Source: Reclinomonas americana ATCC 50394
Taxonomy: Eukaryota
Assembly (NCBI GenBank): GCA_048213135.1
Contig: PS015062.1
Span: 1 to 64,000 of the forward strand
Direction of reading: 5' to 3'
Length of the DNA: 64,000 bases
Shown: positions 7,101 through 63,659 of the stretch, piece after piece
Position numbering within the stretch: position 1 is the first letter of the stretch
How the letters are laid out: each line of letters begins with the position of its first letter
Made by a program: the position numbers and the translations under genes
The notes under the pieces: generated by a model
Database searches by the model: none
Seen by the model: only the letters and a program-made list of their open reading frames with translations
Told to the model about the DNA's origin: nothing

Positions 7101-7788
7101 CCGTGACCATGTCCACCGCCGTGTCATCGCCGGCCACCAGTCGCTCCGCACGCAGCGTCCGCGTCGATCGCAGCGCCTCGAGATCCGCTCGCACATTGTC
7201 TTCGCGATCCTGCGGGCGCTCCTCGGCCGCCATTTGCCGAATGGGCTCGCTGATGGCGTTGTGCAGCAGACGAAACGCCGACTGCATCTGCGCGGCAATG
7301 TACCGCAGCGACCAGGCCACGGTCTCCGGCGCCGAGATGCGTCCACTGCCCACCTCGTGAACAGTCACTGTGCGTGTGTGTGTGCGAGTGTGAGAGAGCG
7401 AGGAGAGAGAGAGAGAGAGAGAGAAGTGGGCGGGAGAGTACACGCAACTGCGCTGCTCAATGCCGCGATGGTGTCGTGGGCTGCCTGCGAGCTCGTCCAC
7501 CGAGTCGGCCGTTGGTGAGCCGAGTGGAGGCGGAGAGCGGCGATCAGTGGCCAGACGGTGAATGGCGGTGAGTGCTGCGCCATCGAGGCGGCCGCGATGA
7601 GAGGTGCTGTTGCCACTGGCTTCAGTGTTGTGCTTGCTCATGGATGTAGAGAGGGACATGAAGGTGGTGGAGAGCGAGGCGGAGCCGTCGCGAAAGTTGT
7701 GGTGGTGGCGATCGCGATCGCGACTGCCCAGACCCGATCGCGCGGTGCGCGAGAGCACGTCGAGAAAGTCGTCTTCCTCCTCGTCCAT
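4147..7788 (-). CDS. Hypothetical coiled-coil protein with low-complexity Ser/Pro/Arg C-terminus (about 8 exons)
   Basis: Long exons 6454-7367 and about 5238-6383 encode heptad-rich E/Q/R sequence; GT-AG introns keep the frame to TGA at 4147-4149; start codon uncertain. Confidence 0.7.
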
Positions 7789-8215
7789 GCGAGGTGCGAA
7801 GGAGGACGGACTGACAAGCGCGTGCTTTAAGATATAAGAAATCAATTGCTCGTCGGTTGGTTGGCCGTTGGTCAAATCAAATCATCTTCGCTCTCTCTTC
7901 TCTCCCGCGATCTCCCCAGGTCACAGACGACACAATACGATGCATTTCAGCTGCGAAGAACAACACCACAGAAGAGGGACAGGGAAAAATCTCACAGAGA
8001 AAGGGAAAGTGACAAGAACGGCGAAAAAACCGAGGATGAATTTCCACCCCCGTCTGCTTCTCCTCCACACTCTCCTGCCGCCCCCACCTCCCGACGACCC
8101 ACCCGAGACGTCCACTCCTCCGCTCATCGAGCCTCAATACAGCATCCACACAGCGCACCGTTCGCCACCAATCACAACACACAAGCCGACCACACACAAA
8201 TCCACAGCGGGGAGA

Positions 8216-8898
8216 TTACTTCTTCTGCAGAATCTTGGCCTTCTCCAGACCCTTGACCTTCTTCGCGCGGTTCTTGCGCTCGCGTCGCTGCTTGCGCGAC
8301 GACTCGACCTTGGGTGACAGGCCCAGCTACACGCACAATAGAAAATCAGCGACACAAGAAACCCTTCGCATTGAACGCGCAAAACACACTGCGGTACTCA
8401 ACGCGGCGCAGACGGTGCTTCGGCTCAACGTCCTTCACGGACTCCATGTCGTCGTACACCTAACACACACTCACTCCATCAGCAATCTGCGCAAAAAAAC
8501 AACAATCTCTCGCCCTTGCGTGCACTCACCAGGGCGAAGCCCGAGGTGCGGCCACCGCCAAATGCCGTCTTCAAGCCGAACAGCTGGATGACGTCGGGGT
8601 TGTTGACCTACACACACACAACCCTCTGTCAACTCACTTGCCGGTCTTCTCCATCTCACACACATTCATGACCGCACCTTGAACATCTTGGCCAGGGTGC
8701 GGCGGAGATCGCTCTTCGACGGCGCGGCCTTGCCAGTGTGAGTGGCCTCCACGGCCTACAATCACATGCACCACTATCAGTGCCTGTCACCTTCCTCTTT
8801 GTCACTCACTCACAAACACACACACACACCATCTGCTTTCGCCGCAGAAGCGGGTTCGTCATGAACTTGCGGATACGGATGCTGTACGAGTCCGACAT
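8216..8898 (-). CDS. RPS24: 40S ribosomal protein S24 (eS24), 5 coding exons
   Basis: MSDSYSIRIRKFMTNPLLRRKQM...FGLKTAFGGGRTSGFAL|VYD...EPKHRLRR|LGL...SRKQRRERKNRAKKVKG. Confidence 0.97.
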
Positions 8899-9189
8899 TC
8901 TCCCGGGAGAACCTACACGGAAGCAAGCGGAGGAAGGGGGGGCAGCGATGGTCAGCACATGATGCGCATGGCCACTCACACACACCACCAACACGCGCAC
9001 ACGAGCACCGCCAACGACACCGATACACACAGACACATCCTCTGCGCACACAAGAGGAGAGAGGCGAGTGGCACACACAGTGCCGGCCTCGAGAGGCGAA
9101 ACCACCTCTCACCTGTGGTGGCTAGTGACAAAAGTGGACAGAGACGGTGCTCGCCACAGCAAACTGTCCCGATCGCAATCACCGACACA

Positions 9190-12100
9190 ATGCTGCGCAG
9201 TCGCACCTTTCATCGCAAGACTCGCCGCGGGCAAGTGCAGAAGCAAGTGCTGGAGCACTATCTGCGCGACGACATTTACTGTGGGTGAGTCCTGTCTCTG
9301 TCTGTGTGTGACAACACACACGCACACACAAGTCAGCAAAGGAACCCTCTCTCTCTGCGAGTCAACTGGCAGCCTGTATGTAGAGGAGAGAGATAGAGGG
9401 AGAGTCTATTGCAGCAGAGATGACCGGGAATGCGACTGAGAGCGTGATTTGAGAATGCGAGTCTGTGCATGTGCATGTGCACTTACGCAGACTCGCCCCC
9501 TTCCCGTCACAGTTCGCCGCGCTGTCTGGTGTGCCCGCAGAAGAATGCCCCTCTCGGTCTCGACTCTGATCATTACTTGATTGGTGCGTCGCTCCTCTGC
9601 ACTCCCTCGATGATTGTGAGACTGATTGTGTGTGTGCATGTCAGTCGACACGAATGTGGCGCTGCAGCAGCTGGACTTTCTCGAATCGCCACACATTCGC
9701 GACGTGATCATTCTGTACACGGTGCTGCAAGAGGTGCGCCATCGCAATCTGTCGGCGCACTCGAGGTTACGGGCGTGTCTGACGGACCCGGCGCGTCGCT
9801 GGTTCTGCTTTGCGAATGAGCACCACCGCGACGCCTACGTCGACCGCTTGCCGCACGAGACGCCCAACGACCGCAACGACCGTGCGATTCGCACCGCGGT
9901 GCAGTGGTACCTGCGTCACTTTGATCACGGCCTCAATGTGATTCTGTTGAGCAACGATCGGGAGTGTCTCGAGCTGGCGACCAAGGAGGGTATTACGGCC
10001 CTGACGCCGCAGGCCTACTGCTTGCGTCTGGGGGAGATTGCAGCACCGCTGCTGGACCTCTTGGCCGACACTCAGGGGAGCGGCGATGCGTCGCGAGGCA
10101 GGGCAGGCACGAAGAAGAAGAATAAGAGAGGCAAGAATGCGGGTGACGAGGAGATGGTGGAGATGCCGACGGATGGGGAGTCGTCGTCGGTGGTGACGTT
10201 GGGAGGTGCGGTCGATGCCGATGAGCGAGTGTTCCCCGTACACCTGCCGCTGCCGCAGTTGATGACCGGTGTGCGTGAGGGTCGTTTCCACCAGGGCGCC
10301 ATTCGTGTCAATCGTCACCACTGTCACGAGGCGTACTTGTCGTCGCCCACGCTGCCGGCCGGCTGTGACATTCTCATTCGTGGGCGTCACATGAATCGTG
10401 CCGTTGACGGTGACATTGTCGCGGTGGAGATGCTGCCGGAGGATCAGTGGATGAGTGCAAGCACGCGCGTCAAGGAGTCCGCATCTGCGGCGGCCTCCAA
10501 CGGTGGTGGTGACGACACTGACGAAGACGAGGAGGAGGAGGAGGAGATTGAGGAAGATCGTGATGCACACGTGCCGCCCATGTTTGACGAGGAGGCCGCC
10601 GTGGGACCTGCGCCGCTGCCGGCCTCCGCTCGGTCACGCCCCACTGGCCGTGTCGTTGGCATCATCAAGCGCAACTGGCGCGAGTACTGCGGATGCATCA
10701 AGATCCCGGATCGGTTGCTGCCCGAGTTGCGAGCGTTCCTGCAGCTGGTTCGCGATATTGTGGCTGTGCTCGTCTATCTCTTTCCCCACTCTCACGGTTC
10801 GCACTTTGCAGTCGGAAAAAGAACGAGCGTCGTCGGGCACTACGTCGTCGAATGTGGTGGAGAGCGTGTTGTTTGTGGCGTTGAACAAGTCGATTCCACA
10901 CATTCGCATCCGCACACGGCAGCTGCGCTCGCTGTTCAACAAGCGCATCGTGGTGCGTATCGATGATTGGCCGCACGATTCACGGCACCCGGTCGGCCAC
11001 TACGTGCGCACCCTTGGCGACATTGGTGACACGGAGGCCGAGTCGGAGGCCATTCTGATTGAGCACGCAGTCACACACTACGCCTTCTCGGAGGCGGTCC
11101 TCGCCTGCCTACCACCACCCGACTACACCATTAGCGACGATGAGGTGGCGCGGCGGCGCGATGTGCGCGACCTGTGTGTGGTGTCGGTGGATCCTCCTGG
11201 GTGCCGCGACATTGACGACGCGCTGCATGCGCGCAAGTTGCCCAACGGTAACATCGAGGTCGGAGTGCACATTGCCGATGTGACGCATTTCCTGGCCGAG
11301 GGTTCGGCCATGGATCTGGAGGCTGCGTCGCGAGCAACCACTGTGTATCTGGTCAACAAGCGCATCGACATGTTGCCGAAGCTGCTGACCGAGAGTTGCG
11401 CACCGTGTTGTCTCACGAACACAAGTACGCACGTCTCTCTGACTTGTCGTGTCGTGCAGACTTGTGTTCGCTGCGTGCTCAAGTGGATCGCTTGTCGTTT
11501 TCGGTGTTTTGGGAGGTCACACCGCAGGCCGGCGTGGTGCACGTCGACTTTGCAAAGACCGTGATCCGCTCGCGCGCAGCCCTGACCTACGCAGAGGCGC
11601 AGGCCAAGATCGACGACAAGGCGTGTCGCGACGAGGTGGCCGAGTCGTTGCGCCTGCTGATGATGTTGGCCAAGCAGTTGAAGCAGCGCCGCCTGGATGC
11701 CGGTGCTCTCTCCCTCGCCTCCCCCGAAGTCAAGTTCAGCATGGATTCCGACAGCGCCAATCCGACCGATGTCCGTTGCGTGATGCAGAGGAAAACACGC
11801 ACACACGCACACACACTTCCTCCCTCTCATTGCTGACGCGGTTGGGTGCAGAAATGTACGAGCTGCGCGACACCAACTCCATGGTCGAGGAGTTCATGTT
11901 GCTGGCCAACATTGCCGTGGCCGAGCACATCACCAATGCGTTCCCCACCCACGCACTGCTGCGTCGCCATCCTCCGCCCACACCACACGCCTTCGACATG
12001 CTGGTCAGTCAGGCGGCCACGGCTGGCGTGGAGATCGACACGTCAACATCGCGTGCGCTGGCTCTCTCGTTGGATCACGCTGTCTCCGCCGACAATCCCT

Positions 12101-13130
12101 ACTTCAACCAGCTGCTGCGCATCCTCACCACGCGATGCATGCAGCAAGCGGTGTACTTTTCTTCCGGCGACATCTCCAAGGACGAGTACTTCCACTACGG
12201 CCTCGCCACACCCATCTACACGCACTTCACCAGTCCGATTCGCCGCTACGCCGACGACATTGTGCATCGATTGTTGGCGGCGTCACTCGGCATCTCGCCT
12301 CTCACGGACCGATTGACAGACCGTGACCTCGTACGCGACATGGCCGCCAGTTGCGTTTCCCTGAGCGATGCACGAGGGAGAGAGAGAGAGAATGATGAAC
12401 AGTTGCTCACTGAACCTGTGCAGACATGAACTACCGGAATCGCATGGCGCAGTTCGCCGGGAGAGCGAGTGTCGAGCTGCACACGCTTCTCTTCTTCCGT
12501 GGCAAGCCACCAATTGTGGAGGACGCGTACATTACGCGCATCCGGGAGAATGCCGTGCTGGCACTGGTGCCGCGCTTCGGCATTGAGGCGCCGGTGTATG
12601 TGACGGATCGCGACGGCCACTCGCTGTTTGTCATGGACGAGTCGGCGCACTGTCTGCGGTCGGCACGTCTCGGCTGCACACTGGCCGTGTTTGCGCGCGT
12701 CCGCGTCTCCATTGCCGTGGAGACCGACCTGTCCACGCAGTCATCGCACGTGGTGGTGTCGTTGGTGGAGCCGTCGCTGACGGTGCCAAGAAAACGAGCA
12801 GTGGGAGGTGCGGCGGCGGCGGCGGCAGCAGGAAGTGTGGAGCCCATGCAGACCGACGAACGAAAGAAAGGAGACGAGAAGAAGAAGAAGAATCAGGACG
12901 ACGACAGCGACGAGGATGAGGAGGAGGAGGAGGAGGACGACGAGGATGGTGAGGATGCCGAGATGGTCGCCGTGAGCGAGAAGCGCAAGGGCGAACCGCC
13001 ACGAAAGCGACGCAAGCAGTCGCTGACCAGCTCCGACGCGCATCCACCAGGCAAGAAGACGGCGACGACGACGACGACGACGATGAAGAAGAAGACGAAG
13101 AGCAAGCAGGCAGGGAAGAAGGACAGATAA
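9190..13130 (+). CDS. DIS3: Exosome catalytic subunit RRP44/DIS3 (PIN + CSD + RNB + S1), 7 exons
   Basis: [81 protein letters not shown]-rich NLS-like tail. Confidence 0.97.
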
Positions 13131-13180
13131 AAGATTGCGGGAACGCGCGAGCACATTTGTCACAGGGTTTGCTTTCGCTA

Positions 13181-16100
13181 ATGAGCAGCAAGCAGTCACT
13201 TCTGTCGACGTTCTTCGCACGGTCGACAGCGGCTCCCGTGCGACCTGTGGCGCCACCTCCGGCTCCGCGAAGCGCACCGAAAAAGGCGTCACCAGTGGCC
13301 ACTCAGAAGACGAAGAAGCGCCCGCGCGATGCAAGCTCAGGCGATGCTGAGGAGGCCATGCAGCAGGAGCATGCAGTGATGGTCGTGGATGATGATGACG
13401 ACGATGCTCCTCCTCCGCCTGTCAATGAGGTGGAGGAGGAGGAGGATGATGATGATGAGCCAATGACGTCGGCTCCGCTGACACCAAGTGCGGGCGAGAG
13501 CAGGGCCAGTCCGCCACGCAAGCGTCGTAACACGCGAGTCTTGCTGGATGATGATGATGATGACGAGGATGGCGAGGATGGCGGGCGTGGTAGCGGATCC
13601 GGATCTGGAGGGATGCAAGTGGAAGCTCCTCGCGCGATGCGTCGTGAGGGGCTGTCGTGGAGTACCGATGCTCTGGCGGCAGCGCCGGCGAGTGTGGCAC
13701 CCAAGATGCCGGTGCCGAAGCGCGGTCGCTCGGCGGTCACGGCGACGAGTGGCGGGGCCAAGTTGACGCCGTTGGAGCAGCAGGTGATGGCGGTCAAGGA
13801 AAAGTACCCCGACGTGGTGCTGTTTGTCGAGTGCGGCTACCGCTATCGCTTCTTTGGCAAGGATGCCGAGGTGTGTTGGCATGGCGTGCACGCTCATCGA
13901 GAAGAGTGTGCATGGCTGAATGGTGCTTTGCAGATCGCGTCGGAGGTGCTGCAGATCATTGCCCATCCGGACCACAACTTCCTCACTGCGTCGGTGCCCA
14001 CTTACCGACTACCGTTCCATCTCCGTCGCATTGTGCAAGCGGGCTACAAGGCCGGCATTGTGAAGCAGCGGGAGACAGCGGTTCGTCAGTGTGTGTGTGA
14101 GGAAAGAGTTGTTCTCTTGAAGCATGCTGACTGATGCTTCTGTGTGTTTGTGTGCCGAGGCAGGCACTGAAAAAGGTCAGCGCCAGCAAGTCGCAGATTT
14201 TCGAGCGCCAGCTGACACAGCTCTACAGCATCTCCACCATGATTGGTGATGGTGTGCAAGGCGATTGCAGTGAATGGGTGTTGTGCTGGCCACTTCATTC
14301 ATCTCTGGTGTGTGCACAGATTTGATTGGCGACTCGGAGGTGAGCGTCACAGAGGTGCGCCCGCTGATGGCACTGTGGGAGGATCCCGAGACCGAGGGCT
14401 TGATTGACATCATTGTTGCGTGCAATGAAAGGTAGTGGAGATTGGAAGCGTCGCTGCTCACCGCCAGCTGCAGAGCATTCATCTGGAGAGCGGGCATGTC
14501 GAGTTTGACACGATTCGTGAGAGTACGTTGACAGTCGCAGCGTCGCCGATAGCCGCCAACCATCTCTCTTACTTGTCATCTCGCAGCATCGTCGGCCACG
14601 CGCCGTGAGCTGATCACACGCATCAGTCACATTCGACCGTCAGAGTTGCTCCTGCCGGCGTCGATGATGAGTGCGACGGTGCGTGTCGAATGTCGCTTTT
14701 GATTTGCCTCCTCCAACCTCGTCACATAACTGTCGTCGGATCGCAGACCGAAAAAGTGTTGTCACAAGTCTGTCGCAGTCACCTGGGCTGGCGCACGAAT
14801 CCCAACGCCGGTCGGCGACTGCAGTTCACCAGCACGGCCACGGCAGAGCCGGCGGCGGCTGAGGAAGGCGATGGCGGAGAGGAGGACGGAGGCGAGGCGA
14901 GTGGTTCGGGTGAGGCGGAGGAGTCGCCGAGTGGATCCTACGACACTGTGCGAGTGGAGCGCGTGGCCAATCGCTGTTGCGTGGTGTTCCTTGTGTGCCG
15001 TCAGAAGACAGTTGCTGAGTTGCGAATGGTGCAGTCAACGATCACGAGTCGGCACTGGAGCAGATTCAGTCATTTTTCGGCGACCACGGCATGGCGCATT
15101 TGCGCTCGGTGGCCGAGGAGGACGGTGGCATCGGCCTCACGCCTGGACTGTGCATCTGCCTCGCCAATCTTGTCGTGTACCTGGAGGATTATAAGCTGGA
15201 CGGCGCATTGCGCAATGTCGGCATGTATCGGCGGTGCGTGGTAACTTGGAGGGTTCATTCGCCCCCGTTGTTCATTTGGAGATTGCCCACTGTGCGTTGG
15301 CAGATTCGGGCGCGGTGACACGGTGCGATTGGACGCCTCCACTCTGCGAAACCTCGACATTGTGGTGCGAAGTGATCAAGTGAGCGTGTCGGAGGTCTCG
15401 GGCGCAGCAAAACCAGCACAGTACGACCGCGGTACACTGCTGTGGCTTCTCGATGCCACCAAGTCGTCGTTTGGCAAGAGGTCTTTTCGTCAGTGTGCGT
15501 GCGACTGCTGCGTGCATGCGCTGTTGTTTGACGTCTGTGCATCCCTGCAGGAAACTTCGTTCGTGGGTGTTGCATCCGCCGACGTCAATCGATGTGTGCC
15601 GACAGCGCCAGGGCGCAGTCACCTTCCTCATGCAGTCGGCATCGGCAGGTTTGTCGAGCTTGGTGTGCTTCTTATTGTGGTGTGTCAACTGAGTGTTATG
15701 CTGTGCAGATGTGCCGCAGCATGCGGGTCTGCGAGCGTCCGTCAGCGCGGCGTTGGCATTGTTGCACGGCTTGCCGGATCTGGAAAAGTTGGTAGCCAAG
15801 ATCCCTCACGGCAAATGTCTGCCAGTTGCGTACTCTCTCTCATCGTCACCCTCATTGTGACGTTGCCTGTTGGGGGTGCTGATTTTCCTCGCGAACAGAG
15901 CGAGCTCTTCAAGCTTTTTTCGACCGTCGTCAGTGTTGTCACTGCACTGGGTCCCGGTGCCGAGGTGTGTGCGACACGTTTGCAGTCTGTTGGCTTCAGT
16001 GTTGGTGATGTTGCTGACAGTTGTGTGGTGAGCAGAGAAACGCCGGTGAACAGGGCAGTGCTCTGCACGTGCGAGACATTCTGTACGGTCGCTTCAAGCT

Positions 16101-18187
16101 CGGCACAGTGCGCTCCGCCGTCGATACTCTCATGCATACCATGGACGCCGATGTTGCGTCCGTGCTGTCCACACCTCTTATCCGTTTTCATCTCACGTTC
16201 TCGTGCAGGCAGCACACAAGAACCAAAAGACTGCACTCTTCACGCCTGCGCTCGACATGTTTCCAGCCGTGGCACGCTGCATGGCCGATCGCCGTGCTGC
16301 CGAGGCGGCACTGGAGCGGGCACTGGACAAGGCTCGCGCCATTTTGCTGAAGCCGAAGCTCGAGTACACGACTGTCGGGCAGCTCGAGGTGAGTCTTTGT
16401 TGTTGTGCATGCTCGAATGTGACCAGTTTGTACTCACCGCATGTCACAGTATCTGCTCGAGGTGACGCCAACTGAGATGAAGAGTCGAATGCCCGACAAC
16501 TGGACGGTGATCAACAAGACGCAGCGCGTGCACCGCGTGCAGAGCCCCGACATTGTGACTCACCTGGATGCACTCAACCGTGCACGCGAATCGCTGACCC
16601 TGGAGTCCGACAAGGCCTACGAGTGCTTTTTGCGTGCCCTCGCCACTGGTTTGCTCGCACCCTTCTTGATGATGATCGGAAACTGTGGTTTCTCACGTGA
16701 TGTGCAGCGGTGGTGGACAAGAGCGGGCATGTGCATCTTGGCGGCCTGGCAGAGGGGGCCGTCGCTGACGGAGATGACGTGGACATGGAAAGTCAGCAGC
16801 AACACGAGGGTTTCTTGTCGCTGCTGTCGTTGTTGGTCGACGCGCTCGCCGAGTTGGACGCGCTGTCGGCGCTGGCGATTGTGTCGCAACGGCCTGGATA
16901 CTGCCGACCCACGTTCCTGGATGAACCGGGCAAGGTGCGAGGTGCTGGTCTCTTGTCACCACAGTTGTGACACTGACAACGATGATGCGCAGCTGGAGTT
17001 GGTCGATGTGAGGCACCCGATGGCCGAGGCCACCATGGACACACCCTTTGTGCCCAACACGGTGCGCTTGCAGGCAGCGACGGCGGCGGCGGCGGCGGGC
17101 GGCGGAGAAAGTGAAGCGACCGTACCATGTGCGCTGGTGATCACTGGACCCAACATGGGCGGCAAGAGCTGCTTGGTGCGCTCTGTGGCACTGGCGGTGC
17201 TCCTTGCACAGCTCGGCTGCTACGTTCCCGCCGAGTCCGCCACCCTTTCCGTCTTTGACGGCATCTACACTCGGTGCGTTTTGCTTTTTGTGCCTCTCGT
17301 TTCTCCCTCCATGTTCTCACTTGCACGCTAGCATGGGAGCCGGTGATGCCATCACGCAGGGTCGCAGCACTTTCATGGTGGAGTTGGAGGAGACGGCCAG
17401 CATTCTCCGCACGGCCACGAGGAGATCGCTGATCATTTTGGATGAGGTTTGTTGGAAAACGACATTCACTGATGGAGCGAGGCACGGTGTTCATCGCCAC
17501 TCTTTTTTTGGTACGACGCAGCTCGGTCGCGGCACGAGCACACACGATGGTGCGGCTATTGCGTACGCCACGTTGGAGCATGTGTTGCGACGAGTCGGTG
17601 CCTGCACCCTGTTCGTGACCCACTATCCTCTCGTGGGCCACCTGGAGACTCTGTACCCCGAACGGTGTCACACGGCGCACATGTTGTGCTTGACAGAATC
17701 GGTGGATGCCGAGGGCTCGGCAACGGACTCGGCGGCGCGTCAGTTGCGCAACCGCGCTCGCCTTTCATGTGTGTGGGAAGGTGGTCACTCACGCACTTGC
17801 GTTTACAGAGTGGTGACATTCCTGTACAAGCTGGATCGCGGCATTGCGCCGTCGAGTTACGGTCTCAATGTGGCCCGTCTTGCCGGCATTCCGCAGGCGG
17901 TGCTCGATCGTGCCGCCGAATTGGCTGCGCAGCTGCAGCAGCGAGTCGAGTCGAGTGCGGTGGAGTCGTCGGAGGCACACTTGCACCAATTCCGGCGGCT
18001 GGTGAGCGGGTTGAAGCAGCTGGTGTCCGTCGGCAATCGCCCTGAATTGGTACGTCGCGCCGTCAGTGAAGGGGAGAAAGAGTGGTGTTTCCATTCACTG
18101 ACTTGAATGCAGACGGACGCGGAGTGGAGGGCAGCGTGCCGGCAGTTCACTGCCGCTGGCGTGCTGATGGGTGACGGATCACAGTGA
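13181..18187 (+). CDS. MSH3: DNA mismatch repair protein MSH3 (about 19 exons)
   Basis: N-terminal PIP box QSLLSTFF; LTPLEQQV..VK.KYPD, VECGYRYRFFGKDAE (MSH3-type rather than MSH6 GKFYE); ITGPNMGGKS; STFMVEL; LDELGRGTSTHDG; FVTHY; SYGLNVARLA. Confidence 0.93.
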
Positions 18188-18210
18188 ACATTGCAATGCA
18201 TGTAATCAAC

Positions 18211-19812
18211 TCACGAGTCCCGTTCACTGCCCGTCAACTCGCGCATCTTTTGCACCACTCTACTGAGGAACACAGGCTGCTGTCGACGACTGGCCGAGGC
18301 AGCAGCGGCACTGCGTCCACGACCGCCGCCGGTCTTGCGATTGCCGGACCATGTGCGGAGCAGTCGTGCATTCTCGTTGTGGCGCCAGATGCGATCGTAG
18401 TCGATGCGGGGGCGCGATGGATCGCGAAAGAGTAGGTAACGTGCGGCCGACGAGTACACCGTCGCAGTGGCAGCCGCCTCTTCGCCAGCAGCTGCGGTGG
18501 CGGCCACCGCGCGTGACCGTCGCCGATTGGGTCTGACGAATAGCACCTCCGTCGCACCAGTCTCCATCCCCATGCTCTCCAAAAATCGATGCAGGTCCAC
18601 CTGCTCTCCCCACTCGGCCAGTGAGTAGGTGTCGAGGTGAAGACGGCGGCAACACAAACACACCGACTCTGGCATCGTGCCATCGATAATGTCTTCGTCG
18701 TCCTCCTCTCCCTCTTCGTCTTCCTCCTCCTCTTCGTCTTCGCTCATACAAACATTGCCGGCGTCGCTGCGATACCGTGCCGTCGGTTTCCGCGCACCAT
18801 ACTTTGAGCGTTGTTCCTGCAACCGCGCACGTGAGCATCAGCATCAACAGCAGAAGAGGAAAAAACCGACAGGCAGCGCACCGCTGTCGGGGTCCACGCC
18901 TGCAAAAACTGCGCCTGATCACGTGCATTCTCGTAGTCCTCGTGCCGCTCTCGACACCACTCCGCAGCGACCCACTGCACGGTGCTCATGGTCAGATCCG
19001 GATCGGCCGCACGCCGCCACATGGTCTCCGCCAGCGGCGTGGTCACCGTGACCTCGCGCGTCATGTACTGCGCACCAAACGACTCCCACAGCACCACATG
19101 CACCGCCGTCTGCGTCGACAGTGTGAGAGAATCGTCAAAACAACACGCTGGCAGCAAACAGCACCAACAACGCCGACCTCCAGTGGTGACAGCGAGTTGA
19201 GTGACTTTTGTTGTCGCCGTCGTCGCCTCCGCTGCACCACAGGAGGCGACGGAGACGCGGGTGGAGGTGTTGGTGATCTCGGTGGTGGAGGAGGAGGAGG
19301 AGGAGGAGAAGGAGGAGGAGGCGGCCGAGGCGCCGTCACTCGTCGCCTGCGCGTCACTTTCGGCAACGCAAGCGCCCTCGGCTTGCCCGCCTTCTCACTG
19401 CGTAAGTGACGCCGCTCCGCCGCCAACTCCGCTCGCGTCAACCGCTTCTCCCGCATCATAATGCTCGTGATGCTCGGTCGCCACGACTCCGACAGCGCTC
19501 CCATTAGCATTTGCGACAGGCGACGTCGATGATGCCGGCGACGCTCCTGCTGTGACTCTGTCACCTCCTCCTCCTCTTCTTCTGCCTCTTCTACCTCCTC
19601 TTCAGACTCGTGCTGCACAGTGGCACAGTGTCGCTTTTGTGGTGGCTCGTCGTCTGCTTCCGCAGATGCATTGCGCTTGCTCATCTGTCGAGCATATCTG
19701 CGCGCGTGGAGAGTGAGTCACGCTGCACTGACACAGAGGAGAACATACATGCACGCAACAGCTCCTCAAACGATGAGCGGATGATGCTGGCCAGTTGCGC
19801 CTGCTCCGCCAT
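18211..19812 (-). CDS. Hypothetical protein, probably nuclear (PPQKRH NLS-like motif, acidic and Pro tracts), 4 exons
   Basis: Frame-consistent splicing MAEQAQL...EEL|YARQMSKR...PLE|TAVHVV...PTA|EQRSKY...ERDS*. Confidence 0.65.
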
Positions 19813-19990
19813 CTCTCTCTGATGTGTCCCGTAAGTCCGTTTGCGTCTTTCTCAAGTCGTGCGAGAGAAAGCGAGGGTGTTAGCAACCGTCTGCTCTCAC
19901 AGACACTGTGCGCGCGAGTGCGTGTCTGATCACACACACATAGTCGACGACAACGCAAGCTGTGTGCGTGCGTGCGCGTGTGTGTGAGGA

Positions 19991-22900
19991 ATGTCGATCG
20001 CAGGTGACTGTTGAGCGATTTTGGCGCGCTGCTCTCTCTCTCTTTGTGACAGCACATTGCACAGCGAAATCGACGCTTGATCGTCTGCGCAACGAGGCAG
20101 CTGCTCTACGCGAGACGCTATCGCGCATTCAGCAGCCACCCGCATCGTCATCGCACAGTCTCGCGCTGTCAGTGTCCTCGTCGGCCTCCTCGTGGGCCTC
20201 CACTCCTCCTCAGACACCCGCTGCTCTGCCACTCGACTGTTCGCCGGTGGGACGCCTGCAGGCGGCGCTCGATGCCTCGTCGCTGACAGCAGGAGGCGGT
20301 TTGCGATGGAGTGGGGCGACTGATGGACTGCAGACGGCGTTCTCGGCGGATCTGGAGGCGGTGCTGTGGCGCGCTGCGGCCTCGTCGTACTCTTTTCGTG
20401 GGACCTCAGAGCAGGAGCAGGCAGAGGAGGTGCCAGAGTCGCCTCCTCCGCGGCCTCCTCCGCCACCAGCAGCACGGGTTGAGAACAACGACGATGATGA
20501 CGATCCAGAGATTGTCAACATGCGAGCGTCGGCGGCGCGGCAGTCGGCAGATGCACCGCTGGAGAGCATGTCGAAGCCGCCTCCGTCACCGCTGAGGGTG
20601 TTCTCGGGATCGATTGTGGTGACTCGACACGAGACGTCGCCGCGAAAGGTGTTTTCTGGGGCGCAGCAGCAGCAGCCGCCGCCTCTGTATCAGCCACCGC
20701 AGGCGCCGGAGCAGAGAGCGGTGCCTGTTGGTGACACGCAGCCAACGCAGCAGTCGACAACAACAGCTGCCGCACCGCCGGCGGGCGGGCTGCGAGCTGC
20801 GGTGGCCGCGTCGTCCGCACCCAAGCCGCGACCAAGCTCGGCGCCCAAGGCGAAACCGTCCGCGACACGAGCGCCTTCAGCAGCCGCGGCCACGGGAGGA
20901 GGAGGAGGAGGAGGTGGGAAGAAGGCCAAGGCAGCGCCTGCTCGTGAACCGCCGTCCAATGGTGTGCGTGTGACGCGGCACGAGCGTGAACTCATGCCGT
21001 CGGCCACTATCATGCCGGATCCCGATCCACTGCCCACCGCGGGCGGCTGGCAAGTGGACGAGAACAGGTCGCCGCCGCCCACCTCGCCTGTTCCGCCACC
21101 GCAGCAACGCCACGCAGGTGCACCGAATGCACCGCCGTGGCCCGTAGTCGGCCAGCCCAGTCGGCGTTCACGAACACCGGTGCGAGTCTCTGGCGACCAC
21201 AAGGACATTCACGAACGCGGTCCTCGTTGCGTGCTCTCTTCGTGACACCTCTCTCGTCTCCTTGTTACCTGTGCTCACCCAGTCTTTTCTTCTCAGCTGG
21301 CCAGCCACCACATTCGAGGCCAGGTCGCCCACAGTCGGCGCCACGGATGCCAGATGTGTTGCCACCGCCGCCGCGTGTGATTGTGCGACAGCCCACCATG
21401 CATCGCCCAGGCGTGCCGGGCGAGGAGCTGGGACGTGTGCGAGTACCCGGGCGGTGCGTTGCGCAGTGCGTTTTTTGATCGCGAGAGAATCCAGGCTGAC
21501 GTTTTGTCGTCGCGCAGTGCGAGCGGCGAGAAGAAAGCTGGAAAACCGGAGACGCCGCCAGCACCAGGCATCGAGGCGCGTGCTCGTCTGCGCACGCCGG
21601 CCTCGCGTCAAGTTCCCTCCTCACGCATGGTGCGGCCGCCGCCAGCCGATCCCGTTCCGGCGGGCACAAATCTGCGCGGCACGCTGACGCGTGAGTTCTC
21701 CCCGATGGCGGTGGCACGCGACACTCCGCCCGACCAAATCCGCTACCGCAATCCCCTGGCGACGCGACCACCCGCAGCCACTGTCGCAGCAACGGCGACG
21801 ACGACGACCACAGCCACCACCACCACCACCACCACCTCGTCCATCACCGCCGCCACCGCTCGGTCGACCATGAGCACACTCGCGGCGAGCACGGTGCGCA
21901 GCAGCATGGGAGCCGACGACCCACTGTTGGCCACTGCGCAGAGTCACTTTAGCGGTCTGGAGGCCACTGCCAATGCCGCGGCAGCAGCAGCGATTGCGCC
22001 GCTGGTGCCGTCTTCTTTACACGATCCAGTACCACCGGCACCACCAGCACCGCCACCAGCCCCACCAGAACAACCACAACCACTGCAGCGGCAACCGCTG
22101 CCACCGGCTGCCATCACGACCGAGACGCCCACGTCGACCTCCTCGCAGCAGCAGCGCATGATGCTGCCGGAGGAGTATCCGGTGCAGCCGCGCGAAAAGG
22201 CGCCTCACACGCAAGTGACTGTCATTCAGAACGGTGGGTCTTCGCGCCCGCCACCGTCTCCATCCGTCACTGTCGGCGGGCCAGGCGAGGTCACCAGTGG
22301 CGTATCACGAGTGGCAAGTGTGCGTGCAGAGGTCCCCACTGTGGCCGAGGCGTACGGAATCGGCAAGGCAGCACAGCAGCAGCAGCGGGGTTCATCACTG
22401 CAAGCTGGCTTGTATCCGCGCTCGTCGCTGGCCAACGATGGCGCACGCTTGCAACCCAGCATGCTGGCGAACACTGCCGGCAGTAGCAGTCGCCGTGGCA
22501 ACGATGATGACGGTGGTGGCAGCAGTAGCGATGATGAAGGCAAGCGCGGTCGGCGACGCAGCAGTGGAGGCGACAATGGACGCGATCGGCGACGACCGAG
22601 CAGTGCTCCGCGTCCGACGCGAAACGGCGAGCACACGGCGAACGGTGATCAACAGCAGCATGGCGACAATGATCGCGGTGGACGAGGCACGGTGATTATT
22701 CAGACTTTTGACTTGTCACCGAAGGACTTGGACTTGAAGATGCGCTTTGCACGCAAGCAGAGCGAAGCTCGTGAAGGTGCTGTGACCTTTTTTCCATGCT
22801 TTTCCCTCCCTTTTGTGTGACTGACTTTCTGCCGCACAGCTCGTCGCGAACGAAAACGACAGCGTCGCTCGTTGCAGTTTTCACAGGAGCAGTTTGCACA

Positions 22901-30201: not shown

Positions 30202-30268
30202 TGTGAAAGAGAAGAGCAAAAGCGCGAGTCTCTGTCTCTCTCTGTCTCTCAGCCAGTGCGTGTGTGGA

Positions 30269-40024: not shown

Positions 40025-40111
40025 CACCGACGGCAGTCCTTTACATCATCGTCCGCCCACTTGTTTCTTTCTCGCGATCCTTTCAAAAGTGTACACAACA
40101 ACAACGAAAGC

Positions 40112-49537: not shown

Positions 49538-52500
49538 ATGCCTGCGTCCTCCTTTGTGGAGTACGAGAAGGAGAACAACCCGCTGTTGCTCTCGATCCAG
49601 TCGAAACCATTCGCGGACATTCTCGCCTTGTGCGCCAAGCAGGTCTGTCAGTGTGTGTTTGCGCATATGCTGATCAAAGTGAGTGACTTTGACGAGAGCG
49701 CGCAGTCGTGTACGGTGATTGTGCCGCAGTCGGTGCAACTGGAGCAGTACACGGGAGCAGATGGGCTTGTGGGTCGCGACTTGGTGCACGCGCATGTGGT
49801 CGTATGCAGTCGCGACTGTCGCTTCGTGTCGCTCAATGGTCTGCGCGGGCGCTTCACCGAGTCGATCGACAGCTTGCGAGTTGCGCGCGATCGAGTCGTC
49901 CCTGCGTGCGCGTGAGTGTGTGTAATGTTGAGCGTTGACAGGTGTTTGAGGGTCCGCCGGAGGGGCAGCGGCTGGTGCGCTTCTTCAATGATTTTCATTC
50001 GCGCTTTGACGATTTCACGCCGCAAGAGCTGGATCCGGACACGTGGGAGATGGCGCCCGGAGTCACCGCCAGCCCGGCCGAGAAGATCCATATTCTCCGG
50101 GTGACCGAGGTCACGCTGCAGAGCTCGACGGTGTGTGTTCGCTTTTCCTGTTGCTTCCTCTCATCTACATCTGACACTTGACAAGCGCAGGATCCGGCAT
50201 TGTCGGTACGAGTGCCGATGATCATCACCGCCAATGTGCTGTGGACGCCGACTGCGACTGCGCCCACGTCCTCCAGCACTGCCGTCACCACCACCACGAC
50301 GCAGTCGACATCCGGTGCCAGCTCACCAGCGGCTGCGGGGGCGGCGCAGTCGGCCATGGCCTCGTTCATGCGCGGTCGCATCAAGGATCTGTTGGAGACC
50401 TATTCACCTCCGCTCAGCGGTGAGTGTGGTGGGGAGAGAAACATGGACGATCGCAGGTTGCTGATCTCGTTCGTGCAGAGAGTGGACTGTTCTCGTCGGC
50501 GGATGCTGCCGGTGCAATGGAACCCGACGCCGACGACGACTCGATGATGAGCTCGATGCGCGATCGATCGTTCTCGGTGGACTCGTCGCAGCTGATGACG
50601 CCGCGGGACCACTCCTCCGGCGACACACTGGCACTCTCCATCTCACCGACGGCCGCCGGCAACTCTGCAGTGCTACCGTCGTCGGCATCATCGTCGGCCG
50701 CCACGTCGGTCCACACCTCGCCACAAGCGGCCGACGACGCAAGTGGCCGCCACGCTGGCACAGCTGGTGCTGCTGCTGCTGCGCCGCGCAAAACCAACTT
50801 TCAGTACTTTCGTCTGGATGCACTGACGCATCGGGCTGCCGCACCGCTGGTGCAACGCATCTTTGCCTTCCTGCAAGCGACACGAGCGCAGCCTCTGCGT
50901 GATCTGGAGGAGTGCATTCACGATTTCGTCGACGACATCACCGACAAGTTTGTCAGTGTGCATGAACTCGTACAGCAGCTGTTGCGTGGGGAGGAAAGGC
51001 CGCACAGGAGTGTGTGTGTGTGTACGGTCGCTCACCCTGTGAAATCAGGCATTTGGACGAAGAGGATGCGCGAGACGAAGATCTGGTGCGAGAGCGTGTG
51101 CAGGAGAATGTCGAGCGTCTGCTGATGACCAAGTTGTATCAGCGGTGAGTGGCGCACTCCACAAGCGCGTGTGCCGTGTGCCTCGATCTGACTTTACGTG
51201 TCGCAGTGTGTTCAACCGCGATGCCGATGCACACGAAGAGGACGCGGCATTCGACCGCCGAATACAGCAGCTGCAGTTCTTGACGCCGGAAAACCTCGAC
51301 CTCGACGCGTCCATTGTGTCTGACAAGTCGTGGGAGCGTGCGCGTGAGGAGTTGCAAAAGGTGGGGCGCTACAAGGCACCCCGTGACAAGGTCGTGTGCG
51401 TCGTCAATGCGTGCAAGTTTCTCTTTTGTTGCGTGCATTGTGACAACGTGTCTGAATCGAGTCGCACACTCACTTTCTATTGTTGTTGTTGTTGTTGTCT
51501 GTGCAGCCGCCCTGTCGCGTCTGTCGACCAAGGGTGGTGGCATCTCGGCCGACGAGTTTTTCCCGTCGCTCATCTATTTGATACTGGAGAGCCAGGTGCC
51601 ACACCTGCTGGCCAACATGCGCTACATCACCACCTTTCGCCACCCGACTCGCCTGACGGCCGAGAACGCCTACTACATGACCAACTTGGAGAGTGCGATC
51701 TGCTTCCTCCAGAATCTCGACGCGTCACAGTTGTCGGTGGATCCCGAAGAGTTTCACAGGTGCGTGTGCGACGGCGAGGCGTGCGGCCCACCGGCACTCC
51801 TCGTCTCTCATGCCTCTCGCTTGCAGGCACGTGAGCAGTGACGAGCGACTGGAAGAACCGCTGCCGTCGTTGCCGCAAATGTTGCCACTGAGAAACAAGC
51901 ACGTGGATGGCGGTGATCTGCAGGCACCGATGACAGTGTCGTCCTCGGCAGCACATGAGGGTGCGAGTGGAGGAGGAGCACAGGCCGACGACGTCTACGA
52001 CATGTTCGCGCTGCCGGCGCAGCTGGAGAAGAGATTACGAAGGCACGGTAAGAGGCAGGCAGGTGACGATGGCGACTCGGACGACGATGCAGAGGAGGAG
52101 GCGAGGGCGCGGTCGGCGCGAGTGCGCGAGGCCACCGACACGTTGCTGCGTGAGCTGCGACACGAGCAAGACTTGGAGATGCAGTTCCGCTTTGGCGGGG
52201 TGCGCGATGCTGACGAACTGCGCCTCGGTGATGTGCATGCGCTGTTGGCTGAAGTTGCGTTTCGAGATGAGGTGAAGGAGGAGAAGCGGTGGAGCTGTGT
52301 CTCATGTGCGTGTGTTGGTGCTTCCGGCAGTACCACATCCTGCTCGAGTTTCGCGAGCGTGTGCTGCAGAACGCGCTGGCCATTCAGTTGGAGTGCGCCA
52401 AAGTGGAGCCTGGCCAAGTCGTCTCGGTGGACTCGACGCCCATCTGCTCGCCCAACGGAGTGTCACCGCCACCACTGCCACCGGCACCGGCGGCTGCGGC

Positions 52501-52876: not shown

Positions 52877-53256
52877 TCACTCCGCAGGCGCCTTCAGCAA
52901 CAAAACCTCCACATTGTCGTGCACAGGCGACAGCAGCATTTGACCCTGCAGCAGCACATGGGCATCAGAAGAACAAGCATGCATTCCCCTCCAACAACAC
53001 ACAAACCTCAAACTGCACATGCCCAAGTCGCTTGGCCGCTCGCAACGTGCCCACTAGTGCCTCAAAACGATTCGCAACGGCCTACAACACACACACGCAC
53101 GTGAGATAACGCACTCAATCACAGAGACAGACAGTGTTGCGCAACATCATCGCGGAAGAGAACGCCAAACGGCACAACGTACTGCCCCTCGCCGCGAGGA
53201 GTGCCCAACCGCACAATCTCCTTGAGCAGATCCTGAACCTCGGCCTCCACGTCCAT
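52877..53256 (-). CDS. ABRACL: Costars/ABRA C-terminal-like protein, 3 exons; absent from the ORF track
   Basis: MDVEAEVQDLLKEIVRLG...VPFGVLFRDD|AVANRFEALVGTLRAAKRLGHVQFE|GQMLLSPVHDNVEV. Confidence 0.92.
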
Positions 53257-53447
53257 CTTTAAAACTCACTCAGCAGGACTTTGTGAAGGCGCATGCTCTT
53301 CTATATCGCCAATCATGACGTCGTTTCCACCGGAAGAAGTGCGCGGATAGAGAGGTTAAGCAACTGCATCGTTTGCTGCGTTGCTTTGACCGCTACCAGC
53401 TTTGCTCGACGTGCAGGACGACTGCATCTTCGTTTTGTTGTGCCCCA

Positions 53448-54466
53448 ATGGAGAATCTGTTGGAGTACGTTGCCGCACACAAGCTGCTTGTGGCGGCCAT
53501 TGCCTCTGTGGCCGTGGCCGTGGCCGGTGTCATTGGCTGGTTGCTGCGTCCGCGTGAACCAACTGTCGTCCGTTGCGTGTGCGTGTGCGCCGCCATGCCC
53601 ATGCACATCCTCCCCCCCCCCTCCTCTCTCTCCGCTCACTTCCCTGTTGTGTTTGCCAGCGATGCACGAGTCGGAGTGGCGCCGCTTCCGGTTGATCGAC
53701 AAGGTGGCGATCACGACTGGCACGCAGTTCCCGGTGTCATTGTTCCGCTTTGCGTTGCCGGAGGGGCAGTCGCTGCAGCTGCCGATTGGTCATCACGTGC
53801 GTGTGCGTGCGCTGTTGGAGGTCGATGGTGCGCCAAAGATGGTCTCGCGCCCGTACACGCCGACGTCGACCAATGATCAGCTGGGCTCGTTTGATCTGGT
53901 CATCAAGGTGTACCCGCAGGGCCTGATGACCAAGCACTTTGAGTCGATGCAGGTCGGCGACACGATTGAGATGATCAAGCCTGTGGGAAGGTGTGCGCGC
54001 GGGTGAACACCACAGGCACTTGATAGCCGTGCTCAACATGCGTGCGCACAGAATGGAGTACCGCAAGAATCAGTACAAGCACATTGGCATGATTGCTGGT
54101 GGCACGGGCATTACGCCGATGCTGCAGGTGGCGGCCGAGATCCTGAAGCACGCCGACGATCACACGCGCGTCAGTCTGGTGTTTGCCAATCGCACCTTTG
54201 CCGATATCATTCTCAAGGAGAAGCTGGACGAGATGGCGGCCAGCTCCAACAAGCTCACCGTGCACTACGTGCTCGAGCAGCCTCCAGTGCCCGACTGGAA
54301 AGAGGGCGACATTGGGTTTGTCACGCCGGCCATTCTGCGACGCACCATGCCGCAACCAGGCGACGATTCCAAGGTTCTGCTGTGTGGACCACCGCCCATG
54401 CTCGCCGCCATGGATCGCGCGCTGGGCGAGCTCGGTTTCGCTGAGCAGCACATTTTCAAGTTTTGA
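53448..54466 (+). CDS. NADH-cytochrome b5 reductase with N-terminal membrane anchor, 3 exons
   Basis: FRFALP, LPIGHHV, RPYTPTS, IKVYPQGLMT, GMIAGGTGITPMLQ, FANRT, CGPPPM, terminal FKF. Confidence 0.95.
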
Positions 54467-54877: not shown

Positions 54878-55148
54878 ATGTCTGACTTGACCGCTGAGGA
54901 AGAGCGCGATCGCCGCATTGAGGCGCGTCAGGAGGGAAGGCGAAGAAAAGCCGAGGAGAAGTCAAGTTGCGCAAGAGAGAAAAGAGTGCACTGTGTCTCT
55001 CACTCACACTCACTCACACTCTCTCACTCACAGAGACTGAGGAGGCTGAGAAGCAGGCAGGTGCAGTGGCTGATGTGGGCCTCGGTGTGCGACAAATCCG
55101 CGAGAGTAAGGCGCACTTGGACAACCTGAAGGTGACGATCAAACACAA

Positions 55149-55182
<34 letters not shown>

Positions 55183-57697: not shown

Positions 57698-57779
57698 GTG
57701 AGATCGGCGCCCCAGTGTGCGTGTACGTGTGTGTGTATTGTGCGCAAAATGAACAGGTCAAAGTGGTGATGGTACGCGA

Positions 57780-59523: not shown

Positions 59524-61929
<2,406 letters not shown>

Positions 61930-62153
61930 ATAGATGCCGTAGTGAAAACACGCACCACGAGATCGCACACGGGTTAACCAATGATACGAAATCGTGTTTC
62001 ACTCTATGCGAGCACAAGAAAGACACACACACCTAACCCACACACAACACACACACACACACACACGTAAATGCACAACACACACAGATGTATTCGTCGA
62101 CATGCAAGCCGCGTTTTGATTCTCGCCGTTACCAGCAGGTGCCTAGGAGCAAA

Positions 62154-63659
62154 TTACCACTCCTCCTCACTGTCAGAGTCGCTGCGAGCACGCGCCTGCG
62201 TTGGCGGCGGCGGCGGCAACAGGGGCTGAGCGGGCGCAGCGACCGGCTCTGCCGCGGGCTCGGCGTGCGCAGCTGGTGCGGGCTCCGGCTCGGCGTGGTG
62301 CACCACAGGCTCCGGCTCGGCGTGGACTGGCTCTGGCTCCGCATGCACTGGCTCTGGCTCGGCGTGGACTGGCTCTGGCTCAGCATGCACTGGCTCTGGC
62401 TCCACGTGCACTGGGGCTGGCGGTGGCGGGGCAACGACTGGGGCTGGGGCTGGGGCTGGGGCCGGTGCAGGCGCTGGAGCTGGGGCTGGGGCGGGAGCAG
62501 GTGCTGGGGCCGGAGCAGCGAGCGGCTTGGGGGCCGGCTGTGTGAGCTGCATGAGTGACAACAAGCGAGCCACAGCCACCACCACCACCAACAACAACAG
62601 TACGACAGACGCAACAGCAGCAGCAGGCGGAGCCGCGGCGGCAGCCGACGCGCTTGGGCCAGCGCGCGAGCCCGACGCACCAGAACCCGGAGTGATGTAG
62701 CTCACGTTGCCGTAGTTGGCACCCATCGACTTGACCACCTTGTCCATGATGGCAGCCTCGTCAAAGTCGCCCGGCTCAGCAGCCTGCCACTCGACATTGA
62801 TGCCCTGTGCACATACACATACCATGAGACCCCGACATGGAATACCGACAACCAGCATGTATGCATGCAATCACCTGGAACAGGTTGGGCAAGTCGTTGT
62901 TGTAGCCCATGGCCGCACCACGCTTGAGCGGAGACACGCGCTCGCCCACCCACTTGACCAGCACAAACTTGGCGCGCTTCGACAGCTCATCGCCCGTCGC
63001 AATGCGAATCGTCGCAAATTGCACCTGCGCAATGCACAAATATGGTAAAAATGTCGGGAATTCACCAACCAAGAGAGATTGCGGCAAAAGGCGTACCTTG
63101 GTCACATCCATCTTGGCCTTCACGTGCGACAGCACAGCGTCGGCGCCGACAGCGCCCTTGTCTTGCACAATGAGGCGCTCCTTGTCAGCGGGAGAGATCT
63201 GCCATGCACACACACACACGCGCACACACGTTTAGCATGAGCGTGCGCGCATGGAGCACAAGAGACACAGAGACGCAGAGAGAGAAGAGAGAGCGTGCGC
63301 GCGTCAGTTGGTCTGAACTGCACGACGGAACATTTCACAACCCACACACTAACTCTTACACGCACACACACGCGCGCACAGAGCACACACACACATGCAA
63401 GAGTCACAGCGCATGCACACACACAAAGGGCAAGCAAGTCGGGTGCGGGGGGAGGGAAGAGGAGGAAGAAGGGTGAAGTTTCATGGTGCCATGACCACAC
63501 AAACCTCGTACAACACATCTGCGCCGCGCGAGGAGACGTGAGTGTATGAGAAAAGAGCGCGCACACACAGAGAGAGGGAAAAACGCAACAGTTGAGCGTG
63601 CCCTCGCGCAGCTGCTCGTACGCAGACGACTCGTTGCCAGACAAGAACTGAAGCGGCAT
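62154..63659 (-). CDS. Coactosin/ADF-H domain actin-binding protein with Pro/Ala-rich and acidic tail, 6 exons
   Basis: TGDELSKRAKFVLVKWVGERVSPLKRG and VKSMGANY are coactosin-type motifs; tail has (PA)n, HAEPEPV repeats, PPPPP, SDSDSEEEW*. Confidence 0.85.
62283..62412 (-). repeat. Coding 21-bp tandem repeat (about 5-6 copies of HAEPEPV)
   Basis: Repeated ctggctctggctc..cgtg/gcatg units on the + strand; PVHVEPEPVHAEPEPVHAEPEPVHAEPEPVHAEPEP. Confidence 0.85.

Follow-up and report, generated by a model that had tools for sequence, protein, structure and literature searches.

A second class of 5' splice sites with the donor GTTGCG in a 64-kb window of the Reclinomonas americana genome

The first 64,000 nucleotides of contig PS015062.1 (forward strand) in the Reclinomonas americana ATCC 50394 assembly GCA_048213135.1, in the following called the window, represent a gene-dense eukaryotic sequence of 64 kb with 60% G+C and many short introns per gene. 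Among the genes recognized are those for DIS3, MSH3, a HIBADH-like protein, an MFS transporter, a WD-repeat protein, SEC31, a VPS9-domain protein, ABRACL/Costars, a cytochrome-b5-reductase-like protein, a DRC1-like protein, TrxR and coactosin. Besides canonical donors of the type G/GTGCGT (the slash marks the cut), the introns of these genes use a second 5' splice site, GTTGCG, which a first-pass annotation had listed at 31 positions as a donor used only after exon bases other than G. The hexamer is indeed present at all 31 positions on the strand given, preceded by A at 13, C at 6, T at 12 and G at none of them. Together with rare variants at the fourth intron base, these GTTNCG donors account for roughly one in four introns of the window, from which all counts in this study come, and for most introns whose upstream exon ends in a base other than G.

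Introns were predicted with a purpose-written, unsupervised gene parser that scores codons by log-odds, models GT...AG introns explicitly and is trained iteratively, and junction positions rest on reading frame and protein homology. The donor model of the final parse scores positions +3 to +8 only and ignores exon bases; the parse is thus incapable of generating an effect at the last exon base (position -1). It contains 138 introns, 35 of which start with GTTGCG (class A), and the other 103 served for comparison. GTTGCG is the commonest donor hexamer (35/138), followed by GTGCGT (18), GTGTGT (13) and GTGAGT (11), and was already the top hexamer (13 of 93 introns) in iteration 0, a parse made without any donor model. 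In a strict set, in which splicing is frame-forced, introns are 45-130 nt long and both neighbouring exons measure at least 45 nt, its share is 22 of 89. The frequency is therefore about one intron in four, higher than the one in six counted by hand in the first-pass annotation. Splicing is frame-forced for 27 of the 35 class A introns. All but two of the listed sites (29/31) were regained by the parse; the exceptions are 61730, which is backed by homology and Pfam continuity, and 62615. Six GTTGCG donors were found beyond the list, at 2229 (-), 19794 (+, dubious), 37348 (+), 45963 (-), 50981 (+) and 51428 (+).

The motif is also unusually specific. There are 83 copies of GTTGCG on both strands of the window, 8 of them after G. 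The heptamer GTTGCGT occurs 34 times compared with 16.0 +/- 3.9 times in dinucleotide shuffles, none of 100 shuffles reaching 34, and 27 of these copies are donors, 5 are antisense, one is a sense-strand non-donor and one precedes a gene model by a short distance. In other words, within gene models an intron begins at 27 of the 28 copies on the sense strand, whereas GTGCGT is far less specific (18 donors versus 34 sense non-donors). We consider it highly probable that the GTTGCG donor class is real.

Several junctions had been thought to be pinned by conserved protein sequence, and for five of them, three in DIS3 and two in TrxR, comparison with homologs fixes the position exactly. The DIS3 introns a/GTTGCGC at 11395..11459 (+; 65 nt, frame-forced), c/GTTGCGT at 11775..11851 (+; 77 nt) and a/GTTGCGT at 12350..12423 (+; 74 nt) are all in phase 1, and their junction codons align without gaps to whichever of the 12 homologues extend over the junction, one homologue starting just before the 11395 junction. 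For TrxR, every GT/GC...AG pair up to 24 nt from the predicted ends was scored against 10 homologs. The best pair was the predicted one for t/GTTGCGT at 60296..60361 (+; 66 nt, phase 2; score 819 versus 728), for c/GTTGCGT at 61730..61793 (+; 64 nt, phase 2; 1798 versus 1709), which lies outside the parse, and for the variant c/GTTTCGT at 60587..60662 (+; 76 nt; 2282 versus 1949). At 61730, position 83 of Pyr_redox_dim is the last exon residue and position 85 the first residue of the next exon, the split codon being position 84.

Domain matches are likewise continuous over other junctions. For the ABRACL/Costars intron t/GTTGCGC at 53082..53145 (-; 64 nt, phase 0), a listed site, the Costars hidden Markov model matches positions 2-34 and then 36-59, i.e. 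it is continuous within 2 residues. The VPS9 domain is continuous within one residue over t/GTTGCGT at 51428..51506 (+; 79 nt), one of two parsed introns of this gene outside the earlier list, the other being t/GTTGCGT at 50981..51048 (+; 68 nt); the listed introns a/GTTGCGC at 49880..49941 (+; 62 nt) and a/GTTGCGT at 52254..52330 (+; 77 nt) of the same gene were both regained by the parse. The exon following the parsed HIBADH-like intron t/GTTGCGC at 29867..29931 (-; 65 nt, phase 0) matches positions 34-71 of NAD_binding_2, starting at exon residue 2. Five parsed introns of MSH3, all on the plus strand, were compared with all GT/GC-AG pairs against 9 homologs. Three rank first by small margins, namely t/GTTGCGT at 14415..14473 (59 nt, phase 0), t/GTTGCGT at 14976..15034 (59 nt, phase 1) and a/GTTGCGT at 15825..15898 (74 nt, phase 0); a/GTTGCGC at 17743..17808 (66 nt, phase 2) ranks second and t/GTTGCGT at 16153..16208 (56 nt, phase 0, frame-forced) third. 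The regions around the MSH3 junctions are poorly conserved, and homology cannot discriminate the last two. MutS_V runs across the 17743 junction (86-138, then 147-188) in a variable stretch, and a Pfam search of the middle MSH3 exons gave no domain match.

The strongest regularity concerns the exon base that precedes the cut. The first-pass annotation had suggested testing for an anti-correlation between GTTGCG and a G at -1, and within the window this is what we found, with G at -1 in 1 of 35 class A introns compared with 75 of 103 others (Fisher's exact test, 4e-14) and, in the strict set, in 0 of 22 compared with 51 of 67 (5.5e-11). Seen from the exon, GTTNCG opens 38 of 62 introns whose preceding base is not G (34 GTTGCG, 3 GTTTCG, 1 GTTACG) and only 1 of the 76 that follow G. 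From the composition of the codon positions concerned, 13.0 class A introns with G at -1 would be expected and 1 was seen (P 1.6e-6); the avoidance of G is thus no by-product of coding. Of the 15 phase-0 class A introns, 13 have A or T as the last exon base, compared with an A+T share of only 27% at third codon positions (p 2e-6), and by hand count nine of the last codons have a synonymous alternative ending in G. This bias defines the class A motif as W/GTTGCG(T>C), where W is A or T.

The earlier statement that no G/GTTGCG donor exists holds for every listed site, and the parse adds one candidate exception, the SEC31 intron g/GTTGCGT at 45883..45963 (-). It is 81 nt long, in frame and stop-free, lies in a non-conserved stretch, and carries CTCAC as its branch and GCAG as its acceptor. 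The remaining seven copies of GGTTGCG are all antisense to genes. A separate observation is that C at -1 is avoided in all introns: only 1 of 60 phase-0 introns with donors other than GTTGCG has it, compared with 30% C at third codon positions.

The remaining donors are spread over both strands. Listed sites regained by the parse are t/GTTGCGT at 19698..19759 (-; 62 nt, phase 2), c/GTTGCGT at 21226..21296 (+; 71 nt, phase 1), c/GTTGCGT at 24430..24489 (+; 60 nt, phase 0), t/GTTGCGT at 27539..27612 (+; 74 nt, phase 1), which is present in every parse, a/GTTGCGT at 38989..39060 (+; 72 nt, phase 2), c/GTTGCGC at 40191..40408 (+; 218 nt, 3' end uncertain) and, in the WD-repeat gene, a/GTTGCGT at 40583..40652 (+; 70 nt, phase 1). 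To these can be added a/GTTGCGT at 46463..46517 (-; 55 nt, phase 1) in SEC31, c/GTTGCGT at 53572..53659 (+; 88 nt) in the cytochrome-b5-reductase-like gene and a/GTTGCGC at 54966..55033 (+; 68 nt) in the DRC1-like gene, all three frame-forced, as well as t/GTTGCGT at 63519..63589 (-; 71 nt, phase 1) in the coactosin gene. The MFS transporter gene contains the listed introns a/GTTGCGC at 30836..31027 (+; 192 nt in the parse, 3' end uncertain), t/GTTGCGT at 32168..32236 (+; 69 nt, phase 0) and t/GTTGCGT at 32684..32758 (+; 75 nt, phase 0), all three also in the parse. About 190 bp upstream of its predicted start (30269), the sequence a/GTTGCGTAC at 30075 (+) may mark a 5'-untranslated-region intron of the GTTGCG class. 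Outside the earlier list, the parse contributes t/GTTGCGT at 2059..2229 (-; 171 nt, phase 0) in a weak gene model, a/GTTGCGC at 37348..37413 (+; 66 nt, phase 0) and a dubious intron, a/GTTGCGC at 19794..20064 (+; 271 nt), which is found in the parse only and whose first exon encodes 4 amino acids. Parsed variants comprise t/GTTTCGT at 35413..35483 (+; 71 nt), a/GTTTCGT at 39553..39614 (+; 62 nt) and a/GTTACGT at 39883..40168 (+; 3' end uncertain).

Introns that are in frame and stop-free make up 8 of the 35 with GTTGCG and 13 of the 103 others. Examples are, apart from the SEC31 candidate at 45883-45963 (-), a/GTTGCGT at 7368..7448 (-; 81 nt, phase 1) and a/GTTGCGT at 37004..37066 (+; 63 nt, phase 0), both listed and parsed, and t/GTTGCGT at 62547..62615 (-; 69 nt), a listed and ambiguous candidate in the coactosin gene. 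Retention of such GTTGCG introns would add residues without truncating the protein.

In all features other than the donor, class A resembles the remaining introns of the window. All 35 are GT...AG introns, with a median length of 70 nt (others 68 nt); a CTNAY branch-like motif is found within the last 32 nt of 25 of 35 (others 71 of 103) at a median distance of 17 nt (others 18 nt), and 31 of 35 end in CAG (others 98 of 103). An all-against-all blastn search of the 138 introns at E < 1e-3 gave 5 hits, which represent 2 intron pairs only. The one class A pair is a 21-nt low-complexity match; the sequence behind the other pair was not inspected. Sequence conservation among class A introns ends after position +7. 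The shared branch, acceptor and length characteristics and the lack of families point to the major spliceosome and argue against introners or a U12-like system; judged by these sequence features, class A looks like a set of GT-AG introns of the major (U2-type) spliceosome. Two class A introns, at 17743-17752 (+) and 53136-53145 (-), open with the 10-nt palindrome GTTGCGCAAC, and the motif is consequently also visible on the opposite strand. A possible pairing of the intron start with an internal CGCAAC was considered and dropped; four class A introns contain CGCAAC, two of them by virtue of GTTGCGCAAC, compared with about 1.6 expected, both figures being rough hand estimates. The complement of GUUGCG may also bear some resemblance to stretches of human U6.

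As proposed in the first-pass annotation, the two donor words can be aligned: GTTGCG followed by T or, less often, C corresponds to canonical G/GTGCGT if T takes the place of its second G and cleavage occurs one base earlier. Canonical donors of the window are degenerate, with the consensus G/GT[G66 T24 A11][C/T/A]G[T], G at +5 in 81 of 103, T at +6 in 69 of 103 and variants such as GTGCGT, GTGAGT, GTGTGT and GTTTGT. Class A, on the other hand, is rigid; each base of GTTGCG is present in 100% of the introns, and +7 is T in 71% and C in 29%. Neither GTAGCG nor GTCGCG occurs as a donor, GTGGCG does so once, and GTTGAG and GTTGTG are not used by the introns of the window. U at both +2 and +3, as a shifted or bulged register requires, is present in 35 of 35 sites, and this invariable T at +3 fits a shift by one position or a bulged U at +2/+3 and not a bulge of any base. 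In addition, the variable base of the core T-N-C-G-T shows the same ranking (G > T, A) in class A and in canonical GT-N-CGT donors.

Most likely, the normal splicing machinery reads the shared U-N-C-G-U core in a non-canonical register. Class A sites would then keep the canonical core, its distance from the cut being greater by one base, and the final exon G of canonical sites would have become the first base of the intron. U1 and subsequently U6 would read the core out of register, either shifted by one position with a U opposite C8 of U1, or with a bulged U at +2/+3, and the cut would then be set at the only GU available. Both the register used and the RNA or protein that reads the motif are what we infer here from the donor sequences.

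Pairing energies were calculated with the universal U1 arm as given in PMC4856993 and with hypothetical complementary arms, which may not match the snRNAs of this organism. A comparison of the window with Rfam gave no match at gathering scores and, at E <= 1, only chance-level miRNA-like matches on low-complexity DNA; U1, U5 and U6 genes were not detectable by Rfam within these 64 kb. Duplex folding with the universal arm placed 15 of the 35 class A sites in the register shifted by one, and none of the 29 of 35 sites covered by the printed categories in the canonical register. A guide complementary to G/GUGCGU binds class A in the shifted register as well, with a mean of -6.2 kcal/mol.

Several results, however, weigh against out-of-register reading by a single machinery. 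With the universal U1 arm the mean pairing energy of class A is only -1.1 kcal/mol, compared with -5.6 kcal/mol for other donors. For a guide complementary to G/GUGCGU, H/GUGCGU (H being any base but G; -9.4) beats H/GUUGCGU (-6.4), which is the opposite of what is seen in the window, where 34 GTTGCG donors and 6 GTGCGT donors follow a non-G base; furthermore G/GUUGCGU (-9.3) should benefit from its -1 G, yet G is avoided. The stability of a single U1 guide thus accounts neither for the five-fold preference for GTTGCG after non-G bases nor for the avoidance of G at -1. The C at +5 is found in 35 of 35 class A introns but in only 22 of 56 (39%) at the equivalent canonical position (P about 6e-15). 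Class A is therefore not merely the canonical set shifted, and its reader seems to demand a G opposite this C, which the universal U1 arm does not offer. Finally, the self-trained gene models are wrong in places, as the missed junction at 61730 demonstrates, and short exons are probably concealed within several of the long 'introns'. The proposal of the first-pass annotation that this lineage routinely reads donors out of register is thus supported in part, by the shared core, the constant T at +3 and, for the sites covered, the absence of folding in the canonical register; the weak U1 pairing, the fixed C at +5 and the avoidance of G at -1, which it does not explain, speak against it.

A serious rival is a dedicated reader, either an altered snRNA arm or a protein. 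It could be a second U1 paralogue, a divergent U1 5' arm or some other guide RNA or protein whose recognition surface complements GUUGCGU (by computation ACGCAAC, with an additional U facing an A at -1), and class A sites would then be cognate to a reader of their own rather than canonical sites read in the wrong register. This would suit the far greater rigidity of class A compared with canonical donors, the invariance of both T at +3 and C at +5, and the observation that GTTGCGT is hardly ever tolerated in sense exons, where it was found once among 28 copies. A perfectly complementary arm binds class A with -11.0 kcal/mol and other donors with -5.1 kcal/mol, and the ratio of 34:6 between GTTGCG and H/GTGCGT is not explained by a single guide. 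Variant U1 genes are reported to occur in other species (PMC3561869, PMC10870369). However, such a guide would also take a G at -1 by wobble pairing (-11.4 kcal/mol), leaving the avoidance of G unexplained, and the U-N-C-G-U core in common with canonical donors is simpler to understand with a single reader. It also has to be considered that the U1 5' arm and the U6 ACAGAGA box are nearly invariant over eukaryotes. Taken together, we regard a dedicated reader as rather unlikely. Neither this model nor the register shift explains why A and T are selected and G is avoided at -1.

The anti-correlation between G at -1 and the strength of the intron side also defines the two classes into which 5' splice sites have been divided, exon-side AG//GU and intron-side //GURAG, in several papers (PMC9803359, PMC11732430, PMC11842720, PMC10581693). 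Class A might accordingly be just the GC-rich version, in this lineage, of the ordinary intron-side strong (right-handed, U6-type) class, read in an unchanged register. It is similar in that the sites after non-G bases carry a strong intron-side motif. Nevertheless, we consider this improbable: //GURAG complements the U6 ACAGA box, but GUUGCG has U at +3, G at +4 and C at +5, lacks the +5 G carried by 81 of the 103 other donors, and in the canonical register pairs neither with the universal U1 arm nor with ACAGA. The division is, moreover, nearly binary here (38 of 62 versus 1 of 76). Excision of class A by a separate spliceosome-like system, U12-type or derived from it, is more improbable still. 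A rigid 7-nt donor without preference for G at -1 does recall U12-type introns, and minor introns are very abundant in Physarum. The donor GTTGCGY is, however, unlike /RTATCCTT, a TCCTTRAY-like motif is absent from class A introns, their branch motifs (CTCAC, CTCAT, CTGAY), branch distance, acceptor and length are those of the other introns, and their abundance is far too high. That some 35 introns are identical over their first 6 to 7 bases could suggest copies of a mobile intron (introner) carrying its own donor, an explanation that we consider hardly credible given only two blastn pairs, the end of conservation after +7, the lack of a target-site-duplication pattern and the location of the introns at unrelated positions of conserved genes. 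Equally far-fetched, in our view, is an artefact of faulty gene models or of a T introduced by sequencing error. The gene models are imperfect, but homologs fix five junctions at single-residue precision, a run of two T is not prone to homopolymer errors, the motif keeps to one strand relative to the genes, and an indel error could track neither the preceding exon base nor A and T at third codon positions.

Precedents for donor recognition out of register come from human. A shifted (+1) U1 register at human 5' splice sites was reportedly described by Roca and Krainer in 2009. Both shifted and +2/+3-bulged registers have since been established experimentally in human; according to Tan et al. 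(2016; PMC4856993), all validated non-canonical U1 registers taken together make up 1.5% of 201,541 sites, with 68 sites predicted for the +2/+3 bulge. Class A resembles these human sites in that it starts with GUU, is predicted to match U1 only after a move by one position, is cut at GU and has two U after the G. It differs in that a single motif is used by about 25% of the introns and is the commonest donor, whereas the human classes are rare, and also in its core, which is GCGU and not AAGU, in its ties to A or T at -1 and in its very weak predicted pairing with universal U1. In the Caenorhabditis elegans mutant unc-73(e936), a '-1' cryptic donor is said to be used, for which compensatory U1 suppressors are known. 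There, too, with a U in place of the normal +1 G, cleavage takes place ahead of the G in a word consisting of G, U, U and the core. That site is a single mutant one that causes a frameshift, whereas in the window dozens of introns show this arrangement constitutively and in frame.

With respect to overall intron structure the green alga Ostreococcus is comparable, whose rigid GTGCG(T/C) donors and CTGAC-like branches have been described (Irimia & Roy 2008, PMC2483917). Both combine a GC-rich genome and short introns with GTGCGT donors and branches resembling CTGAC. In contrast, a GTTGCG class is not reported in the available part of that paper, the canonical donors of the window are degenerate, and its gene set does not look Mamiellophycean. 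A literature search for GTTGCG or GUUGCG donors combined with splicing terms retrieved unrelated papers only, supplementary tables being outside the reach of the search.

The lineage seems to be without representation among annotated genomes. A DIS3 exon matched 80 loci in metagenomes with a top identity of 64%, none of them from a close relative, and the density of GTTGCG in these loci was uninformative. The proteins encoded by DIS3 (9638-13130, +) and TrxR (59548-61929, +) themselves are not contained in a collection of 5.8 billion proteins; the nearest ones, metagenome or Logan proteins, show 72% identity to a DIS3 exon and 69% to TrxR, in each case over single exons. The C-terminus of TrxR (61795-61929, +) reads KGGCPSCA before the stop codon, unlike most homologs, whose sequences are cut at a GC(U)G end, and a GGCPSCA tail was present in only 2 of 92 full-length TrxR homologs fetched. 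By its sequence it looks like a selenocysteine-free C-terminal redox motif. Other features of the window are an imperfect CT-rich low-complexity array of about 560 bp at 2994-3558 (units TC, CTCTC and CCCCT), which causes the strong strand skew of the first 4 kb (GC skew -0.26, AT skew -0.33), and an abundance of (CA)n, (GA)n/(CT)n and (GTT)n microsatellites in introns throughout; CACACA/TGTGTG are the most frequent hexamers.

In summary, a second donor class of the major spliceosome, W/GUUNCGY, together with its reading in a non-canonical register, would best account for the data, and for this statement as a whole we see the balance of probabilities as even. Our confidence is lower than for the existence of the class because the statement includes the register mechanism. 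More tentatively, it is possible that two cognate donor systems operate within one major spliceosome, G/GU... and W/GUUGCGY, the latter recognized by an snRNA arm that has been altered or duplicated (complement predicted as ACGCAAC) and cleaved one base 5' of the position that the U1 helix would dictate. This would represent a natural, genome-scale case in which the register of U1 does not set the cleavage site, and a eukaryote running two donor 'codes' side by side. So far, out-of-register recognition has been a matter of a small fraction of human sites and of mutants, and here it would concern the donor used most often in a genome region, with an almost binary dependence on the last exon base. 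If the GTTGCG class extends over the whole genome, gene finders based on a single donor matrix would miss or misplace about one quarter of the introns of this lineage, and sharp predictions would follow for U1, U6, U1C, LUC7 and METTL16 of the organism, which would then provide a natural system for investigating what fixes the position of cleavage, be it U1, U6, U5 or Prp8.

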